Shown: in pieces, positions 40,117 through 63,010 of the stretch
Position numbering within the stretch: the stretch's first letter is position 1
Layout: every line of letters starts with the position of its first letter
The notes under the pieces: model-generated
Told to the model about the DNA's origin: nothing
Seen by the model: only the letters and a program-made list of their open reading frames with translations
Databases searched by the model: none
Program-made: the position numbers and the translations under genes
Source of the DNA: Thermoproteota archaeon
GTDB taxonomy: Archaea; Thermoproteota; Nitrososphaeria_A; Caldarchaeales; Calditenuaceae
DNA length: 64,000 bases
Assembly: GCA_030550235.1 (NCBI GenBank)
Contig: JAUQPU010000001.1
Coordinates: forward strand, 381,068 to 445,067
Direction of reading: 5' to 3'

Positions 40117-40128
40117 AAGCTGGAGAGG

Positions 40129-42624: not shown

Positions 42625-43038
42625 TTGAAACTGTTCAGGAGGCGTAGGCCTCTGGGACCGACCATAAGCCTCGAAGAAGCGCTAAAGATGATTCCTGCTA
42701 GAAACCCAAACACCGAATCCTCCACCACCCCCTCAGGAGAGTTGAGTGTCAGGCTTAAAATGCCTCAGCCCCGCGGCCTCCTCCAGCGGCTTCTCCCCAT
42801 CCCCGAGTACCGTACTTTCATACTCGATAAGGTCGGAGGGGTTGTATGGGAGAACATAGATGGTGAGAGAAGTGTCAGAGATATTGTAGATCTGTTGGTT
42901 AAGAGTTTCAAGATGACGCGGGAGGAAGCGGAGATAAGCCTCGTCAACTATCTTCAGATGCTCTACAGCCGAGGCCTCATCTACGTGAAGGTGAGGAAGG
43001 ATAAGGAGGCGGGCCAACGCTTAAATCAATCTGGGTAG
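42625..43038 (+). CDS. PqqD-family protein (RiPP recognition element-type peptide chaperone fold)
   Basis: 137 aa; C-terminal region ILDKVGGVVWENIDGERSVRDIVDLLVKSFKMTREEAEISLVNYLQMLYSRGLI matches the PqqD consensus (LNeta..IWeLiDGkrtv.eIv.eL.eeydv..eea..Dv..Fl..L...gli). Confidence 0.65.
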   Translation: MKLFRRRRPLGPTISLEEALKMIPARNPNTESSTTPSGELSVRLKMPQPRGLLQRLLPIPEYRTFILDKVGGVVWENIDGERSVRDIVDLLVKSFKMTREEAEISLVNYLQMLYSRGLIYVKVRKDKEAGQRLNQSG

Positions 43039-43047
43039 ATGCGTTAA

Positions 43048-43650
43048 ATGATGAGTAGTGGAGAGAGAAAATACGGTCGTGTCTCTTTCCCCCTCAGCGA
43101 GTTATTTAGGCTTGTCACACTCAACATTAGAAAGAGGTTGGGTCGCTCACTTCTGACGACACTTTCCGTCCTTCTAGCGATCGCCTTTATGACGGTAATC
43201 TTCACGCTCAGCTCAGTAAATCGTGCAGCTACGGGGGCTGAATTCGCAGCATATCAATTCTGGCTAATCTTCGTCGCACTTCTTGTGGCTGGCCTTGGGA
43301 TATTCAACTCCCTGTTAATTTCGGTCGCTGAGCGTTACAGGGAGATAGCGACAATCAAGACGCTGGGGGCGGCAGACAGACACATACTACTCCTATACCT
43401 CATAGAGTCTCTTGTGATAGGAATCATTGGCGGCGCCCTCGGTGTAGTAATAGGCCTCGGAGTCAGCATAGGACTTCTAGCAGCCTACGGCAGGGCTGCG
43501 GATATCGGGCTAGTCCCCATCGTGGAGTACCTCTACATAATGGGTCAGGGACTACTATACGCAGCCATACTCTCGCTGGTCGCCACATCCTATCCCTCCT
43601 ACCACGCCTCAAAGATGAGCCCCGCGGAGGCATTCCGCGTCGAGATATGA
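43048..43650 (+). CDS. Minimal FtsX-like ABC permease (4 TM, no extracytoplasmic domain)
   Basis: 200 aa; TM1 followed after only about 20 residues by a canonical FtsX/MacB C-terminal 3-TM domain (RYREIATIKTLGA...); 10-nt gap to PqqD-like gene, ATGA overlap with downstream gene. Confidence 0.6.
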   Translation: MMSSGERKYGRVSFPLSELFRLVTLNIRKRLGRSLLTTLSVLLAIAFMTVIFTLSSVNRAATGAEFAAYQFWLIFVALLVAGLGIFNSLLISVAERYREIATIKTLGAADRHILLLYLIESLVIGIIGGALGVVIGLGVSIGLLAAYGRAADIGLVPIVEYLYIMGQGLLYAAILSLVATSYPSYHASKMSPAEAFRVEI

Positions 43651-44480
43651 GAATCTCCCTAGAGCGGCTAATATTCATGCGAAGGCCTGTAGGAGAGTTC
43701 CTCGAACACGCTTGGAGGGCAGGTGTTGATGGTGTAGAGTTTGCTGAGTTCGAGCTTCAGAGGCTGATACAAGAGGGGAGATACGACCATTCAAGCCTCT
43801 ACAAGGATGTGAAAAATAAGGGTCTAACAATATCGGGAATCTACTGGTCGGCCGAGTTTCACAAGAGCGAGGAACGTTCCAAGATACTATCCCAAGCGGC
43901 GGGGTTGGCGGAGGTTTATGGGAAGATTGAGTGCAGGAATGTTGTGATAGGGCCTCCGCGTGGGGGGCTGGGTGCAGGGCTCCCTCCTAGCCAGGTATAT
44001 AGGCTTCTCGACCAGCTCGTAGAGACTTTGAGGGAAGCCTTAAAAATATTCGTAGACAACGGCATAACTCCCTCGCTCCACAACCACTACGACACACTGA
44101 TCGAGACGGAGGCTGAGCTTGAGTACGTCTTATCTAGGATCGAGCCTGAGCTGCTGAAGTTTTGCCCCGACACGGCCCACCTGGCACTGGCCGGGATGGA
44201 CCCTGTGCAAATGATTAGAAGGCATCTAGACAGGATAGTCTATGCTCACCTTAAGGACCTCAAAAGCTTCCAAGCCGAAGGTAAGCGTGTAGAGAGGTGG
44301 TATGAGCTTACGACGGAGCTAGGCAGTGGCGTGATAGACTTCCCCATGATAGTTAGACTGCTGAGATCTACGGGTAGGGTGGAGTGGCTGGTCGTGGAGC
44401 AGGACTTCACAGAGAAAACCCCTGAGGAGAGTGTGAGGATGAGCCTCAACTACCTAGCCCCTCTGGTTCGGGGAGACTGA
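43647..44480 (+). CDS. Xylose isomerase-like TIM-barrel protein (sugar phosphate isomerase/epimerase, IolE/IolI-like)
   Basis: 277 aa; AP-endonuclease-2/xylose-isomerase TIM barrel pattern with conserved E/D/H metal ligands (HLKD, VVEQD). Confidence 0.7.
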   Translation: MRISLERLIFMRRPVGEFLEHAWRAGVDGVEFAEFELQRLIQEGRYDHSSLYKDVKNKGLTISGIYWSAEFHKSEERSKILSQAAGLAEVYGKIECRNVVIGPPRGGLGAGLPPSQVYRLLDQLVETLREALKIFVDNGITPSLHNHYDTLIETEAELEYVLSRIEPELLKFCPDTAHLALAGMDPVQMIRRHLDRIVYAHLKDLKSFQAEGKRVERWYELTTELGSGVIDFPMIVRLLRSTGRVEWLVVEQDFTEKTPEESVRMSLNYLAPLVRGD

Positions 44481-44520
44481 CGCCTAGAGTCTTTTTATTC
44501 CACTCTGCTGATTTTAGACT

Positions 44521-45495
44521 GTGCCACGAGCTGGTGTAAGATTCGGAATCTCCTTCCCCAACTTCTCGCTAGAATCTGCCGCCAAGATAGCGCGCGATGC
44601 TGAGAAGGCGGGGCTTGATAGCGTGTGGGTCAATGACGACATAGTTGGGGTCTTCCAGAAGGAGACCTTCGACGCCATTCTCTGTATGGCGGAGATGGCT
44701 AGGGCCACTCGTAGGATTAAGATCGGGAGTGCCGTCCTGGCAACATATAGGAGACACCCAGTCAATACTTCGATGTCGCTTGTATCCTTGGACCACATCT
44801 CCGGAGGAAGACTGATAGCTGGTCTAGGAAGCTGCTGCCCTAGCCCAGAGTGGGGATTTCCCCTATCAGGTGACGTGGCTGATAGATTCTTGGAATTCCT
44901 CAACGTCCTGAAGAGACTCCTAACCGGAGGAGCGGTGGAGTTTCAGGGCAGATTCTTCAGCCTAAAGAGCTCGGGCCTAACCGTTAGGCCTAGGCAGAGG
45001 CCCCACCCACCGATATGGGCCGCGGCAAATATAGATAGGACAATAAGGAAAATCGCACAAATAGCTGACGGATGGCTACCGATATGTGTCCCACCACAAA
45101 TCTACACCACGGAGCTTCAGACCCTGCGTGATTCTGCCAAAAGCACAGGGAGAAGGCCGAGGGAGATAGAAGCGGGCCTGATGGCCTTCATTCTGGTGGA
45201 GAAGACGAGGAGTATGGCTCTCAAGAGGGCGATGCCCCTACTTGCTCAAACTGCACTATGGTTTAACGCAGCTAGGATAAGAAAGATGGGCTTCGGGGCA
45301 GTGGGCTCTGTGAGCGATGTAACTCCAGAGATGGTTCAAGCTCTCAACATAGTAGGAACTGTCGAGGAGGCTGCTCAGAGGATAGGGGAGTATATCGATG
45401 CAGGGGCTAGGCACTTAGTCCTACAGCCCCTACCGGTTAAGGAGGCTCGGGAGGCTATTCCACGAATAGTAGATTCGATAAGACAGGCTGTATAG
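44521..45495 (+). CDS. LLM-class (luciferase-like) flavin/F420-dependent oxidoreductase
   Basis: 324 aa; GISFPNF...AGLDSVWVNDD luciferase-like monooxygenase family N-terminus. Confidence 0.8.
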   Translation: MPRAGVRFGISFPNFSLESAAKIARDAEKAGLDSVWVNDDIVGVFQKETFDAILCMAEMARATRRIKIGSAVLATYRRHPVNTSMSLVSLDHISGGRLIAGLGSCCPSPEWGFPLSGDVADRFLEFLNVLKRLLTGGAVEFQGRFFSLKSSGLTVRPRQRPHPPIWAAANIDRTIRKIAQIADGWLPICVPPQIYTTELQTLRDSAKSTGRRPREIEAGLMAFILVEKTRSMALKRAMPLLAQTALWFNAARIRKMGFGAVGSVSDVTPEMVQALNIVGTVEEAAQRIGEYIDAGARHLVLQPLPVKEAREAIPRIVDSIRQAV

Positions 45496-45496
45496 T

Positions 45497-48400
45497 TTAG
45501 CGGAGCTGCTCCCACAGGCTAGTTGGCGTCGTCTCTAAAACTTCAGAATCCCTAATAATACATATTCTCTTGCTGAGTCGCTGGGCAGCGAGTAAGGCGA
45601 TGGAGGAAAGGTAACCATCGTCAGATGAGATGCAGATTAGGTCGCAGTCCTTTGCCGCCTCTATCACAGCCTTGGCATCCGAGACCATCGATCCAGAGCT
45701 AGGTATCCTCACCACGACCACCCTGACCAGGTTCGCCTCCAGCATCTCAACCTCTCTCTTCAAGTCATCCTCTGAGGCCCCTCGCCAAACAACCCTGACC
45801 TCGCTCGGATTATAGACAGTGAGGAGCGGCTGGATATGAGCCAGGTCTCGGGAGAAGGGGACGAGTATCCTGATGGTTAAGGATGTGTACTCTATTATGA
45901 ATTGGCGGATGAGCTGAACGATCTCTCTGACATACTGGTCGATGAACCTAGCATCCTGCGCCTCAATCTTCGACCGGAGTTTGACAAAACCCCATCCGTC
46001 CTGCTCATATACATCAAGTATGCATGAGGCCCTGAATGCTCTCTGCTCGGTAGATGAGTAGGTAAACCTGAGTCTATGCAGACCTGCCTCGGTATTTTCT
46101 TCAACACCATGAACCATAATATTCACGGTGGTGGTATAGCTATATTCGCTGAGCCTCGAGTTCATGTAGGTTATAAAGTGTTTAATCTTCGATACCTTAA
46201 GCTTGGCGGGTAGCTCGACTGTCCAATACCCCTCCTCATCTAAGGCCTTTGTCAGAACCCACTTCCATGTCTGCGCCGGCGTGGAGAGAATGATATTCCT
46301 TCGAACCGATAGTATGTGTGACGAAATGAAAATAACAGATGAGAGGGCGAAAACGCCCATGACGCTCTCCTGAGTTAGTTTGAAGTCAATTGGTATGGGG
46401 ATGATTTTAGGGACTATGCTGAAGACCCCAAGAGTCACCAGGACTCCAAGGTATGAGGAGATTACTCCTAGGAATATAGCTTCCGCGACGCTTAGCAGTA
46501 AGATATGGGCTGGATTAAGACCCAGCGTCGACATTGTCAAAAACTCTCCCCTCCTCTCATAGTAATTCGCCAGTGACGCCACCAAAAGATTTAGAAAGGC
46601 GATGCCTGCAACCACCATAACCTCTCCACCCGATATACTGGCAAGACTAACAAGATTGAAGACGTAAACCTCCCCTCCAGGCCTGATTAGTCTCACCTTC
46701 AGATTGGTGTGAAGACTCATCGTCTCGGCAATCCTATCGATTTCTTCCACACCTCCCCCCGAGGCGTATATCTTGGTTGGCAGCGCACCTAGCTTCAGAG
46801 CCCCGTCAAATCCAGTAATTATGACATTCGACCATCCTGCCGGTGCAACTGGAGACATGGGAGGCATGACTAGCGTCGATAGGAAGTAGCCATCAATATC
46901 CTTAAGATAGGTAGGACAGTCTGTACTTAGTATTCCGTCTATCTGCAGGATCACGCCGTTTACTCTTATCCAAGACCCCACTGTTAAGCCGAGGTTTGCC
47001 GCCAAGTCACTCGAGACGATGGATGCTGAAGGATCTTGTCCAATCCGATTTATCTCCCCCTCGATGATGCATTGTGAGAGCTGCTTCGGTAGGAGGGTGC
47101 TACCCGATACACCAATAACACCCCTCAAGTTATAACTCTTATCGTTGATTATGTATTCGCGGCCCGATGGTGGAAAGATAGGAGTCTCAGCTCGGAGGCC
47201 CAAATCCAGGCCCAAACTTCTGAAGAACTCTACATAGCGGGTATCCACAGGCGCGAGGTTATCGAATCTGTATCCCCTATCATATACTATGATGTATGGT
47301 GTCTCTACTGGGTTAACCTTCTCCGTAGGGTTGGAGATGAATACCTCGCTCTCGACGCCTATGTTGACCAGCAGTAGGGTAGCTGAGACGGTGATCGTGG
47401 CCATGGCAACCATCATCCAGGTTCTGAGGGGCCTAGTTTTTAGAAACCTCTTCGCAACACTGAACGCGAGGGAGGAGGCTGCGAGGAGTGCGACTCCGCG
47501 CTGTGTCTTGACCTCGAGGCCTAGGGCTGGGATGCTCCAGACAAGGCCAACTATTACGAGTATGCTGTAGAGGAGGGCGGACCATCCCCACGCATCGCTA
47601 GGCAGGATTGAAGGATGAGAAGCAGCAATAAGGCTGAAAGTAAAGATACTTAGCAAGGACAGGCCAGCAGCTATACTAGACTTCTTCTCACCTAAGACTA
47701 GGTGGCTCAGGGAGAGCGCCCCCAAAACTAGGAACAATGGAAGTAGAATCCCACCACCCCATCTCACACTATAATCGTTTAATGCAGAGTTGATTCCTAC
47801 AAGGTCGATGTAGGTTTTTCGGAGCAGTTGATACGCCTCACCCATGTTTCCCAGGAGATAATGCTCCCTCGAGGCTGCGAGACGCTCCTCAGCCTTTTTA
47901 AGCCTATCAAGCTGATAGCCAAGATAGATGCCAGACTGTGAAAGCCCTTGAAGCCTATAGCCGGTCACCTCGGTGAAATTCTGAACGGCGCCAAATGCTC
48001 TAGGGTAAATAGTGTGCAGCAGAGAGACGATTCGATTCTCGCCTATAAGGCCTGTAAGGTCTTCCATCCATCTAAGCCCTTCACCACCTACTACCGCAAA
48101 CTCTCCATAAAGCCTATAGTCAATAGACTGTGGGACCAGAATTTCGCCATCTCCAAGACCTATCAACCTCTTCAGCACATCAATACTATGGCTCCAGTGG
48201 ATCTCACTGGGATACCAAAGCCCTGCCCCCCACAGCTCAAGCCTATACCGGGCTGAGACGGGGCTGCCATCAATCCAGGGATACAGTCCAATAAACCTGA
48301 CAATGGATGCCCTTTGAAGAACTATCGCCGGCTCTGAATCTAAATAGGGAAGGAGTTTGAGGATAGATATATCGACCGGAAGATATGTCCTTCCATCCTC

Positions 48401-48670
48401 AACTAACGGGCCCACAAGGCGAGAGCCCAGAACTACCGATGCTTCTAAACGCCCATCCCTAGTTTCTAAAAGTACCCGCTCGCCTGAAGGCTCCAACAAA
48501 ATAAACTTCAGCCCGTCCTCCACCGGCATATAATCGTTATCTAATACAGTTATGACTATGGTGGTCGAGTTATCCCTAGCTGTATCCGTGTTTGCTGTAG
48601 CACATACTGTAAACAGCATAAAGATAACAGTCAGCGAGACAGGCGTCAAAGCTGCTAAACGGTAATCCAA
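45497..48670 (-). CDS. Giant FtsX-family permease with large extracytoplasmic domains and a C-terminal cytoplasmic USP-like (universal stress protein-type a/b) domain
   Basis: 1057 aa; signal/TM N-terminus, about 10 predicted TM helices, FtsX domain near residues 650-790, C-terminal about 250 aa soluble domain ending ...DLICISSDDGYLSSIALLAAQRLSKRICIIRD resembling the USP G-x2-G...S nucleotide-binding tail. Confidence 0.55.
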   Translation of the reverse strand: MDYRLAALTPVSLTVIFMLFTVCATANTDTARDNSTTIVITVLDNDYMPVEDGLKFILLEPSGERVLLETRDGRLEASVVLGSRLVGPLVEDGRTYLPVDISILKLLPYLDSEPAIVLQRASIVRFIGLYPWIDGSPVSARYRLELWGAGLWYPSEIHWSHSIDVLKRLIGLGDGEILVPQSIDYRLYGEFAVVGGEGLRWMEDLTGLIGENRIVSLLHTIYPRAFGAVQNFTEVTGYRLQGLSQSGIYLGYQLDRLKKAEERLAASREHYLLGNMGEAYQLLRKTYIDLVGINSALNDYSVRWGGGILLPLFLVLGALSLSHLVLGEKKSSIAAGLSLLSIFTFSLIAASHPSILPSDAWGWSALLYSILVIVGLVWSIPALGLEVKTQRGVALLAASSLAFSVAKRFLKTRPLRTWMMVAMATITVSATLLLVNIGVESEVFISNPTEKVNPVETPYIIVYDRGYRFDNLAPVDTRYVEFFRSLGLDLGLRAETPIFPPSGREYIINDKSYNLRGVIGVSGSTLLPKQLSQCIIEGEINRIGQDPSASIVSSDLAANLGLTVGSWIRVNGVILQIDGILSTDCPTYLKDIDGYFLSTLVMPPMSPVAPAGWSNVIITGFDGALKLGALPTKIYASGGGVEEIDRIAETMSLHTNLKVRLIRPGGEVYVFNLVSLASISGGEVMVVAGIAFLNLLVASLANYYERRGEFLTMSTLGLNPAHILLLSVAEAIFLGVISSYLGVLVTLGVFSIVPKIIPIPIDFKLTQESVMGVFALSSVIFISSHILSVRRNIILSTPAQTWKWVLTKALDEEGYWTVELPAKLKVSKIKHFITYMNSRLSEYSYTTTVNIMVHGVEENTEAGLHRLRFTYSSTEQRAFRASCILDVYEQDGWGFVKLRSKIEAQDARFIDQYVREIVQLIRQFIIEYTSLTIRILVPFSRDLAHIQPLLTVYNPSEVRVVWRGASEDDLKREVEMLEANLVRVVVVRIPSSGSMVSDAKAVIEAAKDCDLICISSDDGYLSSIALLAAQRLSKRICIIRDSEVLETTPTSLWEQLR

Positions 48671-48764
48671 TCTACTCCTTGACTAGCTAGTGTGGTGTAT
48701 AAATTTTATCCAATCCTCATCTATTAATTCTACGAAGCTTAATGACTAGGCCGGTTAATCGGAG

Positions 48765-50309: not shown

Positions 50310-50939
50310 GTTAAGAGCCCTGGACTCGAGTTCTCGGGTAAATTCTATAAGTTCCCCGGCGAGAAAGTCAAGAAGCTCATATATCCTTTTAACGATTGGC
50401 CCAAACCTCCATTCAGAGCCAGGTCCCTTAATGGCTGTTATGAGCCATCCAATCATCTTAGGAGACTCGTAGTGTTTTCTGAGAGCATCGTCGGGCGAGC
50501 TCGCGCCGGTTAGGTCAAAGTAAGTGTTTACGTGCAGCTCATCGACGACGGAGCGCTTAAGCAGTCTTAAGAGTTGATTGTTTCTGTTTAGCCTTATCAT
50601 TAAATCATCTACGGGAGCCACATCTGGGAACACTTTGGATAAGAGCTCTGACGTTACCCACTCGTAAGAATACCTAAATATCCCCCGCCTCCTTATCTGG
50701 ACCTCTCTACGCTTCATCTCCCTATATAGCTGCCCTCCACTATCATCCACCACTTCGCGGATAATTAGAGGTGTTACAAAATGCCACTCCCAGTCGAAAG
50801 ATATCCCCACCAATCTTCGAGAAATCTTCAAGCTACGCAGCCTCGAGTCTTTGAGTAGAATCACCCATCCATCAAGGTCCCAAGAGGCACTATCCACATT
50901 TTTCCCGAGTGCTAGCTTGATAACCTCTAATTCGCTCAA
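50304..50939 (-). CDS. Hypothetical soluble protein co-transcribed downstream of polytopic membrane protein A
   Basis: 211 aa ORF, 45-nt gap after upstream gene on same strand; no recognisable family. Confidence 0.45.
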   Translation of the reverse strand: MSELEVIKLALGKNVDSASWDLDGWVILLKDSRLRSLKISRRLVGISFDWEWHFVTPLIIREVVDDSGGQLYREMKRREVQIRRRGIFRYSYEWVTSELLSKVFPDVAPVDDLMIRLNRNNQLLRLLKRSVVDELHVNTYFDLTGASSPDDALRKHYESPKMIGWLITAIKGPGSEWRFGPIVKRIYELLDFLAGELIEFTRELESRALNL

Positions 50940-50983
50940 TTTTTACCCAAGATATTTAGAGGAAATAGGGGTGAAAAAAAGAT

Positions 50984-53074: not shown

Positions 53075-53100
53075 TCTCAGCTAAGCGTAAATTATGCCAG

Positions 53101-53115
53101 TATATAAATTTTTTA
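53101..53115. promoter_or_regulatory. AT-rich TATA-like element (tatataaatttttta) in the divergent promoter region, positioned for the minus-strand membrane protein A gene
   Basis: About 27-40 nt upstream of the start at 53074 on the minus strand. Confidence 0.3.
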
Positions 53116-53145
53116 ACACGACTCCTCGCACTTTAACTTCAAGCG

Positions 53146-53159
53146 TATAAACCTATAAA
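53146..53159 (+). promoter_or_regulatory. TATA-like element (tataaacctataaa) for membrane protein B gene
   Basis: About 31-44 nt upstream of ATG at 53190. Confidence 0.3.
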
Positions 53160-53189
53160 GCAGTCCGAATTAGTTGGGTTGCAACCGGT

Positions 53190-55097: not shown

Positions 55098-55135
55098 CTC
55101 AAACAATTATATTCCCGTCTCAAAGGTGAATAGGC

Positions 55136-55933
55136 GTGAAGCTCTCATGCCAGGATAATCTTGTACCGGGCAGCACCTTGACTGAGAAGCTTGAGAACTT
55201 GGAGAAGCTGGGATTCAGCGGAATAGAGCTTTGGGGTAGGCCTCACCTGGGCGAGAATCTTAGAGAGGTGAAGGATACGCTGGCATCTTTTAAAGTGAGC
55301 CCATCGGTCATCTGCGCAGGGTACAGTGGAGACCTCCTCAGTCCTGAGCCTAAGGCAAGAGCTGAAGCAGTTCAGGGGATAGTTCAGAGGCTTGAATGGG
55401 CCAGCGAGATTGGGGCCGTAGGCGTCATATTCGTCCCAACATTTGGTGGAGCCAAACTTCCTGATCTATCACCGCTCTATCAAAACGTCATCGAACTTGA
55501 AAAAAGATTGCTGGTAGCTGAGTGTAAGACTCTGGCTAAGAAGGGGGAGGAGCTGGGTGTATGCGCCATATTAGAGCCGCTCAACAGATACGAGACACAT
55601 CTGATAAATACTCTCAAACAAGGATTAGAGATTATAAGGGAAGTAAACTATGAAGGTTTAAGGCTGATGGCCGATTTCTTTCACATGAACATAGAGGAGA
55701 GTAACATCGATGACGCTTTGTCAGAAGCGTCAGACTACTTGGTGCATGTGCACCTAGCCGACAGCAACAGATGCCTCCCAGGCTACGGGCACACTGATTT
55801 CACACCCATAAAGATACTTCTATCAAGAGGGTACAGCAAGTATTTCTCGCTGGAGTGCAGAATAATTGGCGACCCACTGGAGGAGCTGAGAAAATTTGTA
55901 AAATTTATTTCTAAATATGGTGATGTGAGATGA
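55136..55933 (+). CDS. Xylose isomerase-like TIM-barrel protein (sugar phosphate isomerase/epimerase, IolI/IolE-like)
   Basis: 265 aa; TIM-barrel AP-endo2 family motifs (ILEPLNRYE, HLAD, E/H metal ligands). Confidence 0.75.
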   Translation: MKLSCQDNLVPGSTLTEKLENLEKLGFSGIELWGRPHLGENLREVKDTLASFKVSPSVICAGYSGDLLSPEPKARAEAVQGIVQRLEWASEIGAVGVIFVPTFGGAKLPDLSPLYQNVIELEKRLLVAECKTLAKKGEELGVCAILEPLNRYETHLINTLKQGLEIIREVNYEGLRLMADFFHMNIEESNIDDALSEASDYLVHVHLADSNRCLPGYGHTDFTPIKILLSRGYSKYFSLECRIIGDPLEELRKFVKFISKYGDVR

Positions 55934-56910
55934 ATCCGATAGGTATAGTTTTAATTGGCTGTGGCGGCATAATGAATGTCCATGCAAAGAGTCTAATGAC
56001 GTTAAGGGATGGTGTCCGCGTTGTAGCTTGTGCTGACATTGTGAAGGAGAGGGCAGAAGAGTTTGCAAATAGGTTTGGATGCGCGGCCTATACGGATCCT
56101 GTGGAAGCTGTGTCCGAGACGCATCCTGACGTCGCAATAATAGCTGTCCCGCCAAATGCACATGGATTTGAGGAAGAGATAATCGAGCATGGAGTTCACC
56201 TCTTGATAGAAAAGCCTGTGGCAATAAATCTAGAAGTAGCCTCACGCATACTGCGTAAGATTGAGAAGGCCGGAGTTATCAATAGTGTAGGCTACATGTG
56301 GAGATATCTTGATGTTGTCCAGATAGCGAAGAAAGAGATCTCCAACCCCGCTGATATCGGGATGATTTATGGACAGTATGTTTGGGCAGCGAACTTTCCG
56401 CCTGGGCACTGGTGGTTGAGAAAATCCCAGAGCGGCGGGCAGATAGTCGAGCAAGTCACACATATGGTCGACCTAATAAGATACTTCGCGGGGGAGGCTT
56501 CTTCAGTCTATGCAAGGCTTGAAAAAAGGCTCTCGAAGGATGAGGCAATAGACGTTGAGGATTCCTCCGTAATCACTATCAGGCATAAAAGCGGCGTCAC
56601 ATCCACGATAGTGGCCACCTGGAAGAGTACAAACACAATGCAGGATACGTTCATACGGATATTTGCCAGAGACCTAGTGGCAGATATTGTTGGGCATCAG
56701 AGGAAAGCAACATTCTATAGGACCAATAAGGTTGAGGAACTGAGGAGTGCTGTTGACCCATATCTTGAGGAGCTACGGACATTTGTTGAGGCTGTACGAA
56801 CCGGAGATCAGTCTAGAATACTTTCACCCTATTCGGACGCATACAAGACCCTCGAGTTGACCATCAAGGCGAATGAATCTCACAAGTTGGCCAGGATAAT
56901 CGAGGTTTGA
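55930..56910 (+). CDS. Gfo/Idh/MocA-family NAD(P)-dependent oxidoreductase (IolG-like)
   Basis: 326 aa; N-terminal Rossmann GxGxxG (IGCGGIMN) and EKP motif (LLIEKPVA) diagnostic of the family; ATGA overlap with upstream TIM-barrel gene. Confidence 0.8.
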   Translation: MNPIGIVLIGCGGIMNVHAKSLMTLRDGVRVVACADIVKERAEEFANRFGCAAYTDPVEAVSETHPDVAIIAVPPNAHGFEEEIIEHGVHLLIEKPVAINLEVASRILRKIEKAGVINSVGYMWRYLDVVQIAKKEISNPADIGMIYGQYVWAANFPPGHWWLRKSQSGGQIVEQVTHMVDLIRYFAGEASSVYARLEKRLSKDEAIDVEDSSVITIRHKSGVTSTIVATWKSTNTMQDTFIRIFARDLVADIVGHQRKATFYRTNKVEELRSAVDPYLEELRTFVEAVRTGDQSRILSPYSDAYKTLELTIKANESHKLARIIEV

Positions 56911-58571
56911 GTGGTCAGCAGCTAAACAAAAGGTACGCAGTCGCCCTTTGCGTGACCCTCCTCTCTTACTGGCTATTTAGCAGTGGGGTATTCTCATATC
57001 AATATGTGCCATTGACTTCCATGCCGGCGTACAAGCCCTATTTTCAGGATGTCACGAGTGATTCAGGTCTCTTAGTAAGAGTAGTCGATGACCGAGAGAT
57101 GGTATGGATCCCGGGCGGTGGGAGCTGTTGGGGAGATTACGATAGGGATGGCGACCTAGACGTTTATGTCGTGGGCTGGAATGCAACTGGAAGGTTATTC
57201 AGGAATGATGGCGGCCTGTTTACGGATGTGACGCGTGAGTCTGGACTTCTTATCGAGGGTATTGTTGCCGGGAAGGGAATGGGCTGCTCTTGGGCCGACT
57301 ATGATAACAGTGGATTTCCATCTCTGCTTGTAACCTTCTACGATTCTCCCTATGGCAATGTTCACCTGTTTAAAAACCTGGGCGATGGCTCGTTTAGGCT
57401 TGTAACAGATGAGGTGGGCCTCTCTCTTAATCATGGAAGATATGCCTCTGGGGTCGCCTGGGGAGATGTAAATAGGGACGGATGTCTTGACCTCTATATA
57501 GGCTACTACATCAACCTCCGACAGGTCAAAGAGGGCGCAATATTCAGCCAAGGCTCTGGAAATCAGCTCTTCATCAACAACTGTGACGGCTCCTTCAGAG
57601 AATCCGCTGAAATCTACGGTGTCGTTGACTATGGCTATACATTCCAACCCATTTTCATAGACTACGACCTAGACTTTTTCCCTGACCTTTTCCTGGCCAA
57701 TGACTTCGGATACACGAGGCTGTATAGGAACGAGGAGGGTAGGCGTTTCATCCTATCCGCATCGTCTATAGGTGCTGAGAGAGTAGGACAGTGGATGGGG
57801 GTAGCGTATGGGGACTTAGACATGGATGGATACTGGGATATAATTGTGACAAATTACGACGACAACCTCCTCCTAAAATATACAGGTGCGTATTTTAACG
57901 ATATCACGGCAAGGCTCAGGCTAACAGATCCCTACCAGGTCGGCTGGGGAGTATGCATCATCGACATAGACAATAATGGCCTTCTCGACATAATAGTGGC
58001 TAATGGTAAGATAGGCGTTAGGACTGACAAGCCAAGCAATCAAGTTAACAGGGTCTTCTATAATGCTGGGCCATTCTTCTATGATGCCACGTGGCATGCG
58101 GGGCTCATAAGACATGTCAACACACGTGGATTGTCATGCGTGGACATGGACAAAGACGGAGGCGTTGACCTACTATTCTATGACTTACTAGGGTATCCTA
58201 TACTGTATAGAAACCTGATATCGAATTATACAGGCAATCGGTGGGTTCAGGTGAGGCTCGAGGGGGCTACCTGGCTCTGCGGCGCCTGCACCTACAGGAC
58301 TAGCAGGGAGGCTGTAGGCGCTGTAGTGGAGGTGGAGTCTTTAGGTAAGATTTACCGTCAGACAGTTACAAAGGGTACTTCATTCATGTCAGATAATGGC
58401 CCCTGGCTGTACTTTGGCTTAGGGCGGGCCTCTCGTATTGAGAGATTGACAGTCTATTGGCCTAGTGGAATAGTAGAGAATTATAGAGACCTCCCGGTAA
58501 ATAGTGTAATCTTGATCGTGGAGCAAGGGGGTTGCAGTGTGATCGGTGGATTGTCGGGGCATGAAGAGTGA
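56907..58571 (+). CDS. Secreted FG-GAP/VCBS-repeat protein with ASPIC/UnbV-like C-terminal domain (CRTAC1-like)
   Basis: 554 aa; signal peptide/TM; at least 7 repeats of the WxDYDxDGDxDxxV FG-GAP calcium-binding motif; C-terminal ASPIC-like region. Confidence 0.7.
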   Translation: MSGQQLNKRYAVALCVTLLSYWLFSSGVFSYQYVPLTSMPAYKPYFQDVTSDSGLLVRVVDDREMVWIPGGGSCWGDYDRDGDLDVYVVGWNATGRLFRNDGGLFTDVTRESGLLIEGIVAGKGMGCSWADYDNSGFPSLLVTFYDSPYGNVHLFKNLGDGSFRLVTDEVGLSLNHGRYASGVAWGDVNRDGCLDLYIGYYINLRQVKEGAIFSQGSGNQLFINNCDGSFRESAEIYGVVDYGYTFQPIFIDYDLDFFPDLFLANDFGYTRLYRNEEGRRFILSASSIGAERVGQWMGVAYGDLDMDGYWDIIVTNYDDNLLLKYTGAYFNDITARLRLTDPYQVGWGVCIIDIDNNGLLDIIVANGKIGVRTDKPSNQVNRVFYNAGPFFYDATWHAGLIRHVNTRGLSCVDMDKDGGVDLLFYDLLGYPILYRNLISNYTGNRWVQVRLEGATWLCGACTYRTSREAVGAVVEVESLGKIYRQTVTKGTSFMSDNGPWLYFGLGRASRIERLTVYWPSGIVENYRDLPVNSVILIVEQGGCSVIGGLSGHEE

Positions 58572-59904
58572 GCCTACGCAGCCTGTTAGCGTGTCAAGCA
58601 GATTTCTCCTATTATTGAGCCGAGACAGTCTTCTAAACACTATTGTGCTAACAGCTTTTATTACGCAGACACTCCATATGATAGAGCATAGCGCCCAGAT
58701 GTATCAGCACGTTGTCCTTGGCCTGCCAGCTAAGCTTTCTAACGGGCTCCTATTCTTCCTAGACCTAGAGTGGAATCACTTCCTCTTCAACACGCTCTAT
58801 TTAACATTTCTAATCATAATATTTGCAAGGCTGAAACCCTGGTTAACCACTGGCCTAAGTGAGAAGGAGATGCTCCCAATACTCTTCACCACTGGGCTAT
58901 TTATACAATCCTACCATGTTCTGGAACATACATACAGAATGTACGAGTTTCTAACAATAGGATGCACACCATGCTCAGGGATATTGGGAAGATTCTTTGA
59001 CATGGTTCACTTTCACTTTTTCTTAAACCTAGCTGCCTACCCGTTAATTGCTGCCTTGTTTGTTAAAGCCGGGGGTTTAAGACAGCTGCTCAATCCATCA
59101 CCGACAGACGAGACGCATGAGGCTCCTTGGCATAAGCTCGTCAAATCTCCTGCACCAGTATTGGGCATAGTTCTAGTTTATGGCCTTTATACTGGCTATT
59201 CTGTTGAAGCCTACCTGCTCGGCACAACAGTCTTTACAGCCATTGGTGTGGCACTATTTCTCTCCATTTTTGAAGGAGACCTGATACGAAACATTATGGA
59301 CGCTATTGTTGTTGCGTTTTTGGCAGTTATGTGCATCACGTCGTATTTTAGTGCATTGGCTATAGTCTTGGTCAGCCTCTTCTCTGCTAGGGTTTTGCAA
59401 AGATCAAGGGCTCCGGCGCTGAATTATATAGCATTCTCATTCGCAGCGATTCTTACTCTTTCTATGCCTTCGCTTGTTGCCTCACGGTGGGGCAACTACA
59501 ATCTCTACACCTTCTTCACATTGCTCCTTTTTCTCGGCCTCTCAATAAACGCCCTCTCTAAAACAACGGACATTGTTCTAGCTTATATCACTACATGGAT
59601 AACACTATTTATCCCTTTTGAGTTGGCACGGCTAGCCGTTGCTCCCGGCGAGGCGCTTCTCCTACTCCCATCCCACGCCCTAAAAGTGTTTACCAATCCT
59701 ATTTTGATCCTTATAGCCTTCTTCATCGTCCCGCTCCAGAATACTTTTCCACCAAAAAGGTGGCGTATAGTGTATCCAATAGGCTGTGTAACAATTTCTT
59801 TCTTACTATCCTACATCATTCCTATTGATGTAGCGGCCTTCTCTGGCATAGCACTAGCCAACATAGCATATATCGTTGTTGACTGGGCTCTCCACAGAGG
59901 ATAA
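58546..59904 (+). CDS. Hypothetical polytopic membrane protein with duplicated H-x-x-E-H-x4-MY motif and a CxxC (possible membrane metalloenzyme)
   Basis: 452 aa (start possibly at 58561); HMIEHSAQMY and HVLEHTYRMY internal repeat in the first two helices, CTPCSG; overlaps FG-GAP gene by 26 nt. Confidence 0.5.
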   Translation: MDCRGMKSEPTQPVSVSSRFLLLLSRDSLLNTIVLTAFITQTLHMIEHSAQMYQHVVLGLPAKLSNGLLFFLDLEWNHFLFNTLYLTFLIIIFARLKPWLTTGLSEKEMLPILFTTGLFIQSYHVLEHTYRMYEFLTIGCTPCSGILGRFFDMVHFHFFLNLAAYPLIAALFVKAGGLRQLLNPSPTDETHEAPWHKLVKSPAPVLGIVLVYGLYTGYSVEAYLLGTTVFTAIGVALFLSIFEGDLIRNIMDAIVVAFLAVMCITSYFSALAIVLVSLFSARVLQRSRAPALNYIAFSFAAILTLSMPSLVASRWGNYNLYTFFTLLLFLGLSINALSKTTDIVLAYITTWITLFIPFELARLAVAPGEALLLLPSHALKVFTNPILILIAFFIVPLQNTFPPKRWRIVYPIGCVTISFLLSYIIPIDVAAFSGIALANIAYIVVDWALHRG

Positions 59905-59924
59905 GAAGTGGCCTCTATCTACTG

Positions 59925-60677
59925 CTACGCCTGTTTTTCTCGGCTTTCCTCAACCTCTATCTCGCCGACCCTCACCTTCACCGCGACCCTCTCCTCCTCC
60001 CTCTCTATTTTTCCATCACGTATCCATAGAATCCTGTCAGATACATCTATCATCTTCAAGTCGTGGGTCGCTGCTATGACTGTAACTTTCCTATCCAAGT
60101 TAAGCTGTTTTAGCAGGTCTATAATTTGCCTGCCAGTCTTCAGGTCAAGGTTTCCGGTTGGCTCATCTGCCAGTATTATGCTTGGGTCATTGGCTAATGC
60201 CCTAGCTATCGCGACCCTCTGCTGCTGACCTCCGGAGAGTTCCATAGGTCTGTGATGGAGCCTGTCGCCAAGCCCAACTGTCTGGAGGAGTTCAGTAGCC
60301 TTTCTAAACCTATCCTCCCTGCTGACGCCTGCGAAAATCATGGGAAGCATCACATTCTCTAATGCCGTCAATGTTGGGATGAGATTAAAAGTTTGGAAGA
60401 TGTACCCAATCTTTCTATTTCTGAGCCAAGCCAGCTCGTATGAGTCTAGCTTCGAGATATCGACGCCATCGACATAGACTGTACCCTCCGTGGGCTTGTC
60501 TAGTCCACCGATCATGTTGAATAGAGTAGTCTTGCCTGAGCCTGAGGGGCCCATAATAGAGATATACTCGCCGCGATAGATCTTGAGATCAACGCCGTCT
60601 AGGGCTACAACATCAACTTTTCCCAGCTTATAGATCTTTTTTAAACCCTCGGTCGCGACTACGACCTCTCTTGCCAA
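59925..60677 (-). CDS. ABC transporter ATP-binding protein, MacB/LolD/FtsE type (partner class for FtsX permeases)
   Basis: 250 aa; Walker A GPSGSGKTT, Q-loop, signature LSGGQQQR, Walker B ILADEPTGNLD, H-loop ATHD. Confidence 0.85.
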   Translation of the reverse strand: MAREVVVATEGLKKIYKLGKVDVVALDGVDLKIYRGEYISIMGPSGSGKTTLFNMIGGLDKPTEGTVYVDGVDISKLDSYELAWLRNRKIGYIFQTFNLIPTLTALENVMLPMIFAGVSREDRFRKATELLQTVGLGDRLHHRPMELSGGQQQRVAIARALANDPSIILADEPTGNLDLKTGRQIIDLLKQLNLDRKVTVIAATHDLKMIDVSDRILWIRDGKIEREEERVAVKVRVGEIEVEESREKQA

Positions 60678-62573: not shown

Positions 62574-62665
62574 AGCGTACTGATTAAAGAGAATAGAGTC
62601 TAATAAGTATGCAATTCATTGTCATATTCTTTGAGCATTAAATCACCAATAAATGAATCTCTATA

Positions 62666-62968
62666 TCACTCACTTGTGATAATTCCCATCGAAGCTAAGG
62701 AATTATACAATGACTCTATGTTCAGCCCCTTCTTGACCGATACAACCCTGCTCCGTCCCACCTCGTAGATGTTTACCAGTCCAGCCTTGCGAAGGATAGC
62801 TATGTGCCTATAGACCGCCGAATACCTCTTCTTCAACAATCGCGCGTATGCTTTAATGTGGAGTGGCCTTTCGTTCTCAGCAGCTATGAGGAGTATTTTG
62901 AGCCTGGTCGTGTTTCCGAGGGCATTAAATATTCCACCCAATTCAGCCAACTTCTGCTCCGACAACAT
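62666..62968 (-). CDS. ArsR/SmtB-family winged-HTH transcriptional regulator
   Basis: 100 aa; LGNTTRLKILLIAAENERPLHIKAYARLLKKRYSAVYRHIAILRKAGLV wHTH pattern. Confidence 0.75.
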   Translation of the reverse strand: MLSEQKLAELGGIFNALGNTTRLKILLIAAENERPLHIKAYARLLKKRYSAVYRHIAILRKAGLVNIYEVGRSRVVSVKKGLNIESLYNSLASMGIITSE

Positions 62969-63010
62969 GTCAATTATATCTTAGATTAGTGTTTATAATA
63001 ATTATTATTT

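Follow-up and report, generated by a model that had tools for sequence, protein, structure and literature searches.

A conserved chromosomal neighbourhood of Calditenuaceae contains an uncharacterised transporter module shared with three other archaeal lineages

About half of the membrane genes scattered over an 18-kb block of a hot-spring Calditenuaceae chromosome belong to an uncharacterised transporter module shared with three other archaeal lineages. The block lies in a 64-kb stretch of DNA that was analysed as a whole (the window) and is a stable, vertically inherited chromosomal neighbourhood of the Calditenuaceae (Caldarchaeales, "Aigarchaeota"), not a mobile island. We read it as a mosaic of a minimal ABC system (unit A), an archaeal four-gene module (unit B) and lineage-specific cargo (unit C), in which type VII ABC and OPT-fold proteins would cooperate in uptake. 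Our confidence in this reading, which was built by comparison of sequences and modelled structures, is evenly balanced against our doubts.

The block is flanked by genes for a TrpB-like PLP enzyme (trpB2; NF009057, 706 bits) and Dph2, and its ORFs are divided between the two strands, making up at least six transcription units. ORF and profile checks agreed with the initial annotation on the coordinates and domains of all 14 ORFs (Table 1). Its count of only one transporter ATPase is true within the block; two Liv-type ATPases are encoded 4-5 kb upstream (37626-39106).

Table 1. Genes and protein regions of the 18-kb block (positions in the window)
Feature	Coordinates	Strand	Evidence or extent
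PqqD-like, 137 aa	42625..43038	+	Pfam PqqD 42 bits
FtsX200, 200 aa	43048..43650	+	Pfam FtsX residues 73-192
IolE-like xylose-isomerase-like TIM barrel, 277 aa (TIM277)	43647..44480	+	Pfam AP_endonuc_2
F420-type luciferase-like oxidoreductase, 324 aa (LLM324)	44521..45495	+	Pfam Bac_luciferase 183 bits
Giant FtsX-domain protein, short form, 1057 aa	45497..48670	-	Pfam FtsX 686-790; PADLOC PDLC01991
Giant FtsX: C-terminal extension, ~125 aa, Rossmann-like	45500..45886	-	Alignment pattern and PADLOC name
Giant FtsX: single detectable FtsX unit	46310..47416	-	Residues 419-787
Giant FtsX: ectodomain 1	47750..48601	-	Residues 24-307
GT-C glycosyltransferase, PMT/ArnT-like, 514 aa	48765..50309	+	Pfam PMT 55 bits, PMT_2 27.7 bits
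unk211, 211 aa	50304..50939	-	No family match
DUF6785/DUF6784 protein, 696 aa	50984..53074	-	Pfam DUF6785 68 bits, DUF6784 30 bits
OPT635, 635 aa	53190..55097	+	Pfam OPT 29 bits (cut-off 25.8), weak
IolO/epimerase-like xylose-isomerase-like TIM barrel, 265 aa	55136..55933	+	Pfam AP_endonuc_2 110 bits
GFO/IDH/MocA oxidoreductase, IolG-like, 326 aa	55930..56910	+	Pfam match
FG-GAP + ASPIC/UnbV (CRTAC1-like), 554 aa	56907..58571	+	Pfam FG-GAP_3 122 bits, UnbV_ASPIC 56 bits
mem452, ~10-TM, 452 aa	58546..59904	+	No Pfam match
ABC250, MacB/LolD-type ABC ATPase	59925..60677	-	Best PDB match MJ0796

Unit B is an uncharacterised archaeal module of four genes, encoding the DUF6785 protein, OPT635, the giant FtsX-domain protein and unk211. 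A Foldseek search with the AF2 model of the DUF6785/DUF6784 protein (pLDDT 82, pTM 0.88) matched barley YS1 (7wst/7wsr) with an E value of 6e-9, a probability of 1.0 and TM scores of 0.59/0.67; as modelled, the protein is a secondary transporter with an OPT/Yellow-Stripe fold. The Pfam OPT match of OPT635 spans profile positions 102-615 of 623. These two proteins had been described as 16-TM paralogs. Pairwise BLASTP between them was not significant (E 0.046), whereas hhalign aligned their family profiles over 584 columns (99.6 %, E 1e-24); they are therefore remote paralogs. The OPT635 gene is divergent from the DUF6785 gene and opens a same-strand run of five genes, from OPT635 to mem452, tied together by overlaps of 4 bp and 26 bp. 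Directly downstream of the DUF6785 gene, unk211 encodes a soluble, cytoplasmic protein without a signal peptide, for which searches of Pfam, NCBIfam, PADLOC and PDB gave no match. Its AF2 model (pLDDT 82, pTM 0.83) found no fold match in the PDB by Foldseek (best hit E 0.058, TM 0.26). Orthologs of unk211 adjoin DUF6785 genes in Thermoprotei and Hodarchaeales.

The genes for the DUF6785, giant FtsX and OPT-like proteins were found next to one another in Thermofilaceae/Thermoprotei (loci L016, L017, L167-L169), in Bathyarchaeia (L018, L019) and in eight genome loci of Hodarchaeales, with partial support from L151 and L159. Seven block genes have orthologs in a single contiguous cluster of Hodarchaeales (Asgard), where PqqD, FtsX200, two ATPases, DUF6785, giant FtsX, OPT-like and unk211 genes lie within 17 kb, and four of the seven recur jointly in Thermofilaceae and Bathyarchaeia. 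This cluster and the four-gene recurrence bear out the proposal that the block holds an uncharacterised membrane system. In the Thermofilaceae and Bathyarchaeia loci, the 10 kb on either side of the giant FtsX gene contained no ATPase gene.

Unit A, made up of the PqqD-like protein, the ectodomain-less FtsX200 and the LolD/MacB-type ABC250, is a minimal type VII (MacB/FtsX-type) ABC system. By hydropathy FtsX200 has four TM segments, with a TM1-TM2 loop of about 15 aa and no extracytoplasmic domain; its residues 70-199 alone align with MacB and LolC/E/F, none of them shorter than 330 aa. The PqqD-like protein carries an N-terminal extension of about 55 aa and its gene a TATA-like box at -41. 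In 14 metagenomic loci, as in the Hodarchaeales cluster, FtsX200 is immediately preceded by a PqqD ortholog. The FtsX200 stop and the TIM277 start share a 4-bp overlap, and the PqqD, FtsX200, TIM277 and LLM324 genes form a putative operon with PqqD as its first gene. ABC250, which matched MJ0796 in the PDB with an E value of 2e-73 and had LolD and MacB as its top NCBIfam matches (below cut-off), is encoded 16 kb from FtsX200, downstream of dph2, so that the two genes occupy opposite ends of the block. Elsewhere, 65 of 80 metagenomic loci had an ABC250 ortholog close to FtsX200, typically adjacent to it (of 75 such ORFs, 74 share its strand; median offset +670 bp). ABC250 shares 63-75 % identity with the ATPases encoded directly after FtsX200 orthologs but only 29-31 % with the window's Liv ATPases. 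FtsX200 and ABC250 are a cognate pair, normally adjacent, that was pulled apart in the Calditenuaceae lineage; the split of transporter components remarked on in the initial annotation is real. Most FtsX200-ABC pairs (about 60 of the 80 loci) stand in a housekeeping context and lack any DUF6785 gene in the surrounding 10 kb; in L133 the pair lies 4 kb from DUF6785 remnants. Since most pairs have no DUF6785 gene nearby, unit A clearly works alone in many archaea, and its link to unit B comes from two or three lineages only.

Unit C is cargo specific to the lineage: cytoplasmic enzymes (IolE/IolO/IolG-like and F420-dependent), the GT-C transferase, and a surface FG-GAP/ASPIC protein with mem452 as its membrane partner. 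The enzyme genes accompany the module in Calditenuaceae only. TIM277 scored 88 bits against TIGR04379 IolE (cut-off 290), the 265-aa TIM barrel 143 bits against NF041099 IolO (cut-off 300) and the IolG-like oxidoreductase, whose gene overlaps each neighbour by 4 bp, 110 bits against TIGR04380 IolG (cut-off 355); many F420 LLM models of NCBIfam matched LLM324, all below cut-off. LLM-like genes also adjoin FtsX200-ABC in L116, L133, L135 and L143. Where TIM-barrel and GFO genes stand close to DUF6785 genes in bacteria, chance may be the reason, since such genomes are rich in both families. The GT-C gene, placed between those of unk211 and giant FtsX, is confined to the Calditenuaceae version, and no GT-C homolog adjoins the module in other lineages. 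The FG-GAP/ASPIC protein has an N-terminal anchor or signal; its homologs adjoin DUF6785 genes in two bacterial phyla, Latescibacterota and Gemmatimonadota (L041, L044, L060). The mem452 gene, which overlaps the FG-GAP gene by 26 bp, encodes an N-terminal His/Glu-rich 4-TM domain (DNA 58633-59115) and a C-terminal part of about six TM segments. This N-domain, matched on its own by 249 representative clusters, has the invariant residues H, H, E, H, H, E, H and N and a well conserved GCxPCPG stretch in which one Gly alone is invariant. It is fused to FG-GAP/ASPIC in P0100, P0085 and P0200 and to Beta_helix/NosD elsewhere. Pfam and PDB searches gave no match to it, and this membrane domain is new.

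The solitary FtsX200-ABC pairs, the confinement of unit C genes to Calditenuaceae and the spread of the block over both strands would all fit neighbours without a functional link, kept by inertia in one family, the similar clusters reflecting a few ancient transfers. We consider this unlikely, though deserving of some weight. The DUF6785/giant FtsX/OPT-like adjacency persists at only 17-27 % protein identity, in four archaeal lineages and in differing orders, and gene overlaps and fusion proteins bind several pairs. Alternatively, the block could serve envelope biogenesis or export. In that case the FtsX/ABC proteins would export or set free a component of the cell surface, perhaps a peptide for which the PqqD-like protein acts as chaperone; glycosylation of this component would fall to the GT-C enzyme, and the FG-GAP/ASPIC protein would belong to the surface layer. 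Export or extraction is the task of the MacB-type systems known so far (PMC5985334), NCBIfam names link PqqD domains to peptide binding in RiPP pathways, and the block does encode GT-C and FG-GAP proteins. Such a role nevertheless appears decidedly unlikely, as no RiPP enzyme or precursor gene lies nearby, the GT-C gene is missing from the module elsewhere, every OPT/YSL member characterised to date is an importer (PMC9691689, PMC3061005) and, judging from gene layout, cytoplasmic catabolic-type enzymes are putatively co-transcribed with OPT635.

In the giant FtsX protein an N-terminal TM segment and ectodomain 1 are followed by a 3-TM block, one true FtsX unit and two cytoplasmic parts, a conserved domain of about 160 aa and a Rossmann-like extension. 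Ectodomain 1 of the short form is beta-sandwich-like and not PA/M28; the nearest short-form homolog (L019, 1131 aa) gave weak CarboxypepD_reg-like matches (24.6 bits, below the Pfam cut-off of 32.3), and long forms have PA and Peptidase_M28 at this position. The FtsX unit, in the order TM, MacB-type periplasmic core domain, 3 TM, aligned with the FtsX200 family at 98 % probability (hhalign), and MacB_PCD matches were found in giant FtsX homologs; the first TM block (residues 295-410) had no hhalign match to that family. With one detectable FtsX unit the protein would therefore need a partner. About 270 aa follow the last TM in short forms and about 160 in long forms, the Rossmann-like extension, recognised by eye from its alternating hydrophobic-strand pattern, being present in short forms only. 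A PDB sequence search with the extension gave no match, and the canonical [DN]x[ST]xxx[RK] motif was not evident by eye in its alignment. The extension is probably a CARF-like domain, a label taken solely from the name of PADLOC model PDLC01991 ("CARF_m8--CARF_LolE_TM"), whose positions 10-810 of 810 matched residues 239-1057 (695 bits, E 3e-209). So strong a full-length match could mean that the protein is a membrane effector of the CARF type, serving cyclic-oligoadenylate signalling in type III CRISPR, and that the module is defence-related; membranes are the predicted, and in some cases the demonstrated, target of CARF-TM effectors (PMC9704534, PMC12642688). This is very unlikely: the 64-kb window has no CRISPR array and the ORFs scanned no cas gene, the surrounding genes are housekeeping ones, and Asgard and Thermofilaceae long forms keep the same transporter neighbours without the extension.

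The initial annotation had called the region accessory-like. Whole-block synteny was found in Calditenuaceae loci L001-L014, and L087-L090, in which FtsX200 is only 75-84 % identical, are syntenic from PqqD to the OPT-like gene, where their flank ends. With the flanking trpB2 as bait, 24 contigs of the same species were fetched, and every one of them carried the block; relatives outside the species were all recovered with block genes as bait, a sampling to which block-less lineages are invisible. Instead of the variable presence that had been envisaged, the block was present and syntenic in every relative recovered; against the alternative of universal conservation with good annotation, it is conserved and its genes are poorly annotated. 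Codon-usage distance is the same for block genes and the other 35 genes of the window (p 0.92), and GC3 is slightly lower in the block but within range (0.542 versus 0.573, p 0.026). Scans of the window agreed that obvious boundaries are absent: its sole tRNA gene lies at 26560, no CRISPR-like or flanking repeats were found, and no integrase or transposase domains were present among the ORFs scanned. A recently acquired genomic island is barely credible given this synteny, codon usage and lack of boundaries, even though GC3 is reduced, tetranucleotide correlation drops at 48-60 kb (with comparable dips outside the block at 24-28 kb), FtsX200 and ABC250 bracket the block as though DNA had been inserted between them, and the closest DUF6785 homologs beyond the family are those of Thermofilaceae (56-61 %).

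Type VII ABC systems work by mechanotransmission (PMC5985334, PMC12646458), and HvYS1 is a homodimeric proton symporter (PMC9691689). In the uptake reading that we favour, the OPT/YSL-fold pair, possibly a heterodimer, would import an organic substrate by proton symport, with peptide-like, chelate-like or glycoside-like compounds as candidates. The giant FtsX protein would be energised by ABC250, thereby sharing the ATPase of FtsX200, with which it may pair. Its ectodomains, on the model of other type VII ABC systems, would perform mechanical work at the outer face, the substrate being captured, released or handed over, not transported. The CARF-like cytoplasmic domain would provide ligand control, and the co-located enzymes would process the imported material. 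Judged from its components, the system probably captures a substrate at the cell surface and takes it up there.

The block at positions 42625-60677 lies between a TrpB-like PLP enzyme (NF009057, 706 bits) on the left and Dph2 on the right. ORF calls and Pfam and NCBIfam searches returned its 14 ORFs with the coordinates and domains given by the initial annotation, which had regarded the region as accessory-like and lacking tRNA, integrase or repeat boundaries. The absence of boundaries was borne out. The only tRNA in the window lies at 26.5 kb, away from the block; no flanking direct repeats or CRISPR-like repeats were found in the window, and no integrase or recombinase domain among the ORFs scanned. 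The comparison of GC content and codon usage with other genes, proposed at the time, was also run. The codon-usage distance between the block genes and the pooled other 35 genes was as among those 35 themselves (p 0.92), the GC3 of the block was slightly lower (0.542 vs 0.573) and inside the range of the other genes, and tetranucleotide dips equal in size were found elsewhere in the window. Six other species of Calditenuaceae (L009-L014, L013 being a short contig) had the full block in synteny, and its left part, from the PqqD-like gene to the OPT-like gene, was kept in four more distant metagenomic relatives (L087-L090), whose flank stops at the latter gene and whose 200-aa FtsX permease (FtsX200) is 75-84% identical. 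Since all of these loci had been fetched with block genes as bait, the look-up was repeated with the TrpB2 protein of the flank. A further check that had been suggested, whether the block is variably present among close relatives, showed no such variation: the block was carried by 24 of the 24 contigs read in this look-up and by all Calditenuaceae loci recovered. Homolog searches with FtsX200 returned Calditenuaceae proteins at 75-100% identity and then proteins at 40%, with nothing between 75% and 40%, and those with the 211-aa protein (unk211) returned Calditenuaceae matches only. The missing boundaries, the ordinary codon usage and the presence in all Calditenuaceae relatives sampled give no support to a genomic island, which is very unlikely; among these relatives the region is not accessory.

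The host is a Calditenuaceae archaeon (Caldarchaeales, "Aigarchaeota") whose nearest loci bear the labels Candidatus Calditenuaceae, Caldarchaeales or HR02; the same species recurs in many hot-spring MAGs. In one genome of this species (GCA_038852825.1) the gene for the secreted FG-GAP/ASPIC protein is called in two pieces (393 and 123 aa), its membrane partner is called as 277 aa, and about 220 extra bp lie near the ArsR-type gene; these differences could be strain variation or assembly noise. Leftward beyond trpB2 are a ribosomal L40e gene, genes for a KduI/IolB-like protein and an aldo-keto reductase, and the full gene set of a Liv-type ABC importer; elsewhere in the window the genes are of housekeeping type (carbamoyl-phosphate synthase, LeuRS, cytochrome b, molybdenum hydroxylase). 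The giant FtsX and DUF6785 genes have the same TATA-like element, "AAAATTTATA", 33-34 nt ahead of their start codons, and TATA-like boxes also precede the OPT635 and PqqD genes. The common elements are compatible with short-leader transcripts and perhaps with shared regulation; they come from a simple TATA-box scan, to be read as a hint only, a sigma-70 promoter and terminator scanner being unsuitable for an archaeon.

Table. Position and properties of features in the window and in related loci. Scores are for the best NCBIfam match.
Feature	Locus	Coordinates	Strand	Properties
Aldo-keto reductase with KduI/IolB-like isomerase	window	39106-40884	+	just left of trpB2
KduI/IolB-like isomerase	window	40129-40884	+	IolB, 65 vs cut-off 205
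FtsX200	window	43048-43650	+	200 aa
Giant FtsX protein	window	45497-48670	-	1057 aa, short form
Region upstream of giant FtsX gene	window	48671-48764		TATA-like element
Region upstream of DUF6785 gene	window	53075-53189		TATA-like element
TIM277 (TIM barrel)	window			IolE, 88 vs cut-off 290
TIM265 (TIM barrel)	window			IolO, 143 vs cut-off 300
GFO326	window			IolG, 110 bits vs cut-off 355
mem452 N-terminal domain	window	58633-59115	+	four-helix, ~160 residues
ABC250 ATPase	window	59925-60677	-	
ArsR/HVO_A0114-type regulator with a membrane gene on each side	window	61947-63724		right of dph2
Membrane gene left of regulator	window	61947-62573		no Pfam match here, faint one on record
Membrane gene right of regulator	window	63011-63724		sub-threshold ECF S-component match
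FG-GAP/ASPIC gene in pieces and membrane partner, same species (GCA_038852825.1)	L006	3395-6054		
Trio loci, Thermofilaceae/Thermoprotei	L016, L017, L167-L169			
Trio loci, Bathyarchaeia	L018, L019			
Trio loci, Asgard	eight loci			mutually similar, mostly labelled Hodarchaeota or Heimdallarchaeota
Two giant FtsX genes, Bathyarchaeia	L019	2-9853		long and short form
DUF6785 homolog in three ORFs	L133	15103-16834		
Hodarchaeales cluster	L039	2657-20813		
Hodarchaeales cluster	L054	1355-21243		
Hodarchaeales extra gene				Cys-rich, 128 aa, overlaps FtsX200 start
Hodarchaeales extra gene				330 aa
Hodarchaeales extra gene				~820 aa (823), soluble, no Pfam match
Hodarchaeales extra gene				~740 aa (737), secreted and anchored

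Alignment of the DUF6785/DUF6784 protein (696 aa) led to 78 genomic loci, the ORFs of which were then searched locally with all block proteins. In three further lineages the DUF6785 gene, an ortholog of the OPT-type protein OPT635 and a giant FtsX-domain gene were adjacent, with identities to the window's proteins down to 17-27%. The unk211 gene follows DUF6785 in Thermoprotei and is the last gene of the cluster in the Asgard loci. In the latter, the DUF6785 gene is preceded, at 3-4 kb, by a PqqD-like gene, FtsX200 and two ATPases resembling ABC250, so that seven genes dispersed in the window are contiguous there. Two metagenomic contigs (L151, L159) carried part of the Asgard arrangement before the contig ended, and in a further lineage (L133) the FtsX200-ABC pair, a gene of LLM type and a fragmented DUF6785 gene lay inside 7 kb. 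The fragmented gene, 4 kb downstream of the intact pair and LLM-like gene, may belong to a module copy in decay or be an artefact of assembly. The Hodarchaeales clusters (the two in the table and six similar ones) hold four more conserved genes and two different ATPases, not one. Neither these four genes nor a 789-aa gene of Thermoprotei had a homolog in the window, and on comparison they showed no relationship with unk211 or with the giant protein's C-terminal domain. The initial interpretation was right in part: accessory status fell, but the region contains a conserved module, catalogued in pieces and never characterised. These arrangements contradict, for the trio and for the quartet that includes unk211, the view that the genes are merely neighbours without a functional link; for the ABC pair and the enzymes such a view is possible.

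Alignment of FtsX200 orthologs led to 80 metagenomic loci, in 65 of which an ABC250 ortholog was present. Nearly all ABC250-ortholog ORFs near FtsX200 were on the same strand (74 of 75), at a median offset of 670 bp. ABC250 was 63-75% identical to the ATPases partnering FtsX200, as against 40% to an unrelated MacB-type ATPase and 29-31% to the Liv ATPases of the window. The neighbourhood and the identities together indicate that FtsX200 and ABC250 are a cognate pair. The split transporter described initially is thus real, the two genes being usually adjacent elsewhere and here placed at the two ends of the block, 16 kb apart and on opposite strands. The best NCBIfam matches of ABC250 were LolD, MacB, YbbA and FtsE and its best PDB matches MJ0796, MacB and LolD. 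FtsX200 has four TM helices and lacks the extracytoplasmic TM1-TM2 domain characteristic of type VII ABC systems, a loop of about 15 aa standing where MacB, LolC/E/F, YtrF and FtsX hold their ectodomain. In 14 loci the gene immediately upstream of FtsX200 is PqqD-like and has the same N-terminal extension. The PqqD-like protein matched Pfam PqqD (42.3 bits vs cut-off 23.4); no RiPP maturation enzyme (radical SAM, lasso cyclase, protease) or precursor was found in the block or in the Pfam-scanned loci. Pairs of an ectodomain-less FtsX and a MacB-type ATPase are widespread in thermophile metagenomes. At about 30 loci (within L093-L143) the FtsX200-ABC pair sits among housekeeping genes (RPA-like OB-fold, GGGP-synthase-like and Elf1-like zinc ribbon, as identified by sequence inspection); these contexts make the pair an independent, widespread archaeal unit and hint at a core role apart from the block.

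The giant FtsX protein consists of an N-terminal TM helix, ectodomain 1, a three-helix block, one FtsX unit that includes a periplasmic core of the MacB type, and a conserved cytoplasmic stretch of about 160 residues. Its FtsX unit holds about 230 aa between TM 419-437 and TM 670-688, a segment matching MacB_PCD in homologs. Pfam FtsX was matched by FtsX200 and the giant protein, with profile matches to MacB, LolC/E/F and YtrF. A duplicated FtsX within the giant protein was considered and rejected, the first TM block giving no FtsX signal and offering a topological likeness only. With the type VII ABC systems (MacB, LolCDE, FtsEX, BceAB, YbbAP-TesA) the block has in common a LolD/MacB-type ATPase, ABC250, the TM2-TM4 core of FtsX, present in FtsX200 and in the second half of the giant protein, and the MacB-type periplasmic core domain of the latter. 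It departs from them in that FtsX200 has no ectodomain whatever, whereas the giant protein is extended by a second TM block of unrelated type, by a further ectodomain, by a conserved domain on the cytoplasmic side and by a CARF-like tail; in that the ABC250 gene is distant from the permease genes, while permease and ATPase genes are usually adjacent; and in that the constant partners are carriers of the OPT/Yellow-Stripe (YSL) fold. We know of no type VII system with such partners, and the characterised members known to us are all bacterial. We rate the region as a variant of a type VII ABC system plus OPT/YSL carriers.

Some relatives of the giant protein are longer (about 1500 aa) and carry a PA plus M28-like ectodomain 1 that matches aminopeptidases, the transferrin receptor (TfR), GCPII and nicalin. 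Ten such long forms were examined (L016, L017, L018, the first copy in L019, L020-L022, L039, L054 and L168). The catalytic Glu-Glu pair (Glu151/Glu152 equivalents) was replaced in all ten, by H/Y/F and W/H/N/Y, and His97, the first zinc ligand, was variable. Since the pair is replaced throughout, the long forms are probably receptor-like pseudo-peptidases, their PA plus M28 domain being comparable to the ectodomains of the transferrin receptor, nicastrin and nicalin; the window's protein differs from these receptors as a short form devoid of the domain. An active extracellular aminopeptidase was rejected as an account of the module, the catalytic residues being absent from the long forms and the entire domain from the window's protein. 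A literature search found no papers on FtsX plus M28 in archaea. One contig of Bathyarchaeia (L019) carries both a long form (1520 aa, with the PA domain) and a short form (1131 aa, with the C-terminal tail), which flank an OPT-like gene and after which comes a DUF6785 gene; the two forms thus coexist and are not simple mutual replacements. Ectodomain 1 of this short form, the short-form homolog nearest to the window's protein, gave weak sub-threshold CarboxypepD_reg-like matches only.

The DUF6785 protein and OPT635 are remote paralogs (hhalign 99.6%, E 1e-24, 584 columns), a relationship visible by profile comparison only, the BLASTP comparison of the two being not significant. OPT635 scored above the Pfam OPT cut-off (29.2 vs 25.8 bits), whereas the DUF6785 protein fails that model and is filed under two DUFs, DUF6785 and DUF6784, its only Pfam matches. 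The AF2 model of the latter (pLDDT 82, pTM 0.88) found a sole match among solved structures, barley Yellow Stripe 1 (HvYS1; OPT/YSL, TC 2.A.67), with which it has the fold in common (E 6e-9, TM 0.59/0.67) at 12-14% sequence identity. OPT proteins are importers of peptides and chelates (PMC3061005), and HvYS1 is a homodimeric proton symporter (PMC9691689), so that a heterodimer of the DUF6785 protein and OPT635 is conceivable by analogy. A literature search found no paper mentioning DUF6785 and no description of a paralog pair around an FtsX protein. To our knowledge, the OPT/YSL branch of DUF6785 has no prokaryotic member with a known substrate. The AF2 model of unk211, built from 16 Calditenuaceae sequences, was confident (pLDDT 82, pTM 0.83). 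No Foldseek PDB match below E 0.05 and no Pfam, NCBIfam or PADLOC match was obtained for this protein, and a PDB sequence search gave nothing useful.

The remaining genes are lineage-specific. OPT635, TIM265, GFO326, FG-GAP/ASPIC and mem452 form one same-strand run, with overlaps of 4 bp and 26 bp, and PqqD, FtsX200, TIM277 and LLM324 a second. The closest families of GFO326, TIM277, TIM265 and the KduI/IolB-like isomerase are those of inositol (iol) catabolism. None of the four reached an equivalog-level Iol match, and no homologs of IolC, IolD or IolA were found among the ORFs scanned; the BLASTP comparison of TIM277 with TIM265 was not significant. Their chemistry is probably of the keto-sugar or cyclitol type. 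The aldo-keto reductase and IolB-like genes left of trpB2 form, with the IolE/IolO/IolG-like genes of the block, a loose cyclitol or keto-sugar-type set at sub-cut-off scores. The GT-C gene, which accompanies the module only in Calditenuaceae, matched PMT (55 bits vs 22.7) and PMT_2 (27.7 vs 26.1), with at least six hydropathy peaks and an acidic YDEG motif visible after TM1. This gene and the MacB precedents would suit a role in export or envelope biogenesis, which fits the data in part; the importer family to which the OPT-type proteins belong and the catabolic type of the enzymes argue against it.

The FG-GAP/ASPIC protein has the same domain pair as CRTAC1-like proteins, for which we know of no function in prokaryotes, and is distinguished from them by its coupling to a His/Glu-rich four-TM domain not described before. 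FG-GAP/ASPIC genes adjoin DUF6785 genes in Latescibacterota and Gemmatimonadota, once overlapping them (L044). An exhaustive search with the membrane protein mem452 gave 249 representative clusters, nearly all matching its first ~160 residues only. This domain has invariant H, H, E, H, H, E, H and N residues and a well-conserved GCxPCPG motif of which one Gly alone is invariant. It showed no Pfam or PDB relative and a faint DUF6008 similarity only, and PDB sequence searches with mem452 and with the HxxEH domain profile gave nothing useful. In three homologs (P0085, P0100, P0200) the domain is fused to counterparts of the FG-GAP/ASPIC protein encoded upstream, and in others to Beta_helix/NosD, RHS or Laminin_G proteins. 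Given the overlapping genes here and the fusions elsewhere, the FG-GAP/ASPIC and mem452 proteins are very likely partners, and the mem452 domain has the look of a membrane anchor for secreted proteins with a metal or redox site, of a kind not described so far.

The short form of the giant protein has about 125 additional residues at its C-terminus, a tail that appears Rossmann-like. The protein matched the PADLOC model PDLC01991, "CARF_m8--CARF_LolE_TM", from end to end (695 bits); its family is therefore already catalogued as a CARF-domain membrane protein. In the description attributed to Makarova et al. 2014, CARF domains are Rossmann-like in fold, strand 1 being followed by a polar residue and strand 4 by a [DN]x[ST]xxx[RK] motif. 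In the alignment of the tail a beta-alpha pattern and an S/G-rich loop (CISSDDG or CISGTS) are visible, the basic residue not being conserved. PDB sequence searches with the giant protein and with a profile of the C-terminal extension gave nothing useful, and a literature search found no study of CARF_m8. While the window's protein matches the whole model, it does so outside any CRISPR context, with no CRISPR array in the 64-kb window and no cas gene among the ORFs scanned, and the putative CARF part is missing from the long forms related to it. A CRISPR-ancillary role, suggested by the CARF label as its only support, is contradicted by the genomic context and the tail-less orthologs.

Characterised type VII ABC systems all convert cytoplasmic ATP hydrolysis into movement of ectodomains, not of substrate through the membrane (PMC5985334, PMC12646458). 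By analogy with these systems, ABC250 would drive the giant FtsX protein, which would act on something at the cell surface. As the giant protein has only one FtsX unit, it would perhaps pair with FtsX200. The two OPT/YSL-fold proteins would import the substrate, the CARF-like tail and unk211 would act on the cytoplasmic side, and the neighbouring enzymes would metabolise the imported compound. The homologies, folds, synteny and fusions were observed; a complex, a shared ATPase, inward transport and any particular substrate are proposals only. The main weakness is that the FtsX200-ABC pair mostly occurs alone; in addition, the giant FtsX gene of the Thermofilaceae and Bathyarchaeia loci has no ATPase gene close by. 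In its fullest form the proposal is of an undescribed hybrid uptake machine, extending from Asgard archaea to Thermoproteota, in which a type VII complex feeds a proton-symporter heterodimer of the OPT/Yellow-Stripe fold; we consider it unlikely that all of this applies. In such a machine a MacB-type ATPase and a giant FtsX bearing a receptor-like ectodomain, perhaps joined by the ectodomain-less FtsX, would use ATP for capture or release of substrate at the cell surface, controlled by a cytoplasmic CARF-like sensor together with the 211-aa protein that has no structural match.

Should the genes be neighbours and nothing more, the region would be an ordinary one. Should they work as a single machine, this would be the first coupling of a MacB/FtsX-type mechanotransducer to secondary carriers and would give a first functional handle on DUF6785/DUF6784, on the CARF_m8 membrane family and on the conserved 211-aa protein. 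For the lineages concerned, namely Aigarchaeota, Bathyarchaeia, Thermofilaceae and Hodarchaeales, nearly all that is known of nutrient acquisition comes from annotation. The analysis yielded two by-products that may be of use by themselves: the pair of an ectodomain-less FtsX and its ATPase, widespread in thermophilic archaea, and a His/Glu/Cys-rich four-helix membrane domain, in at least 249 clusters, to which secreted beta-propeller and beta-helix proteins are joined.
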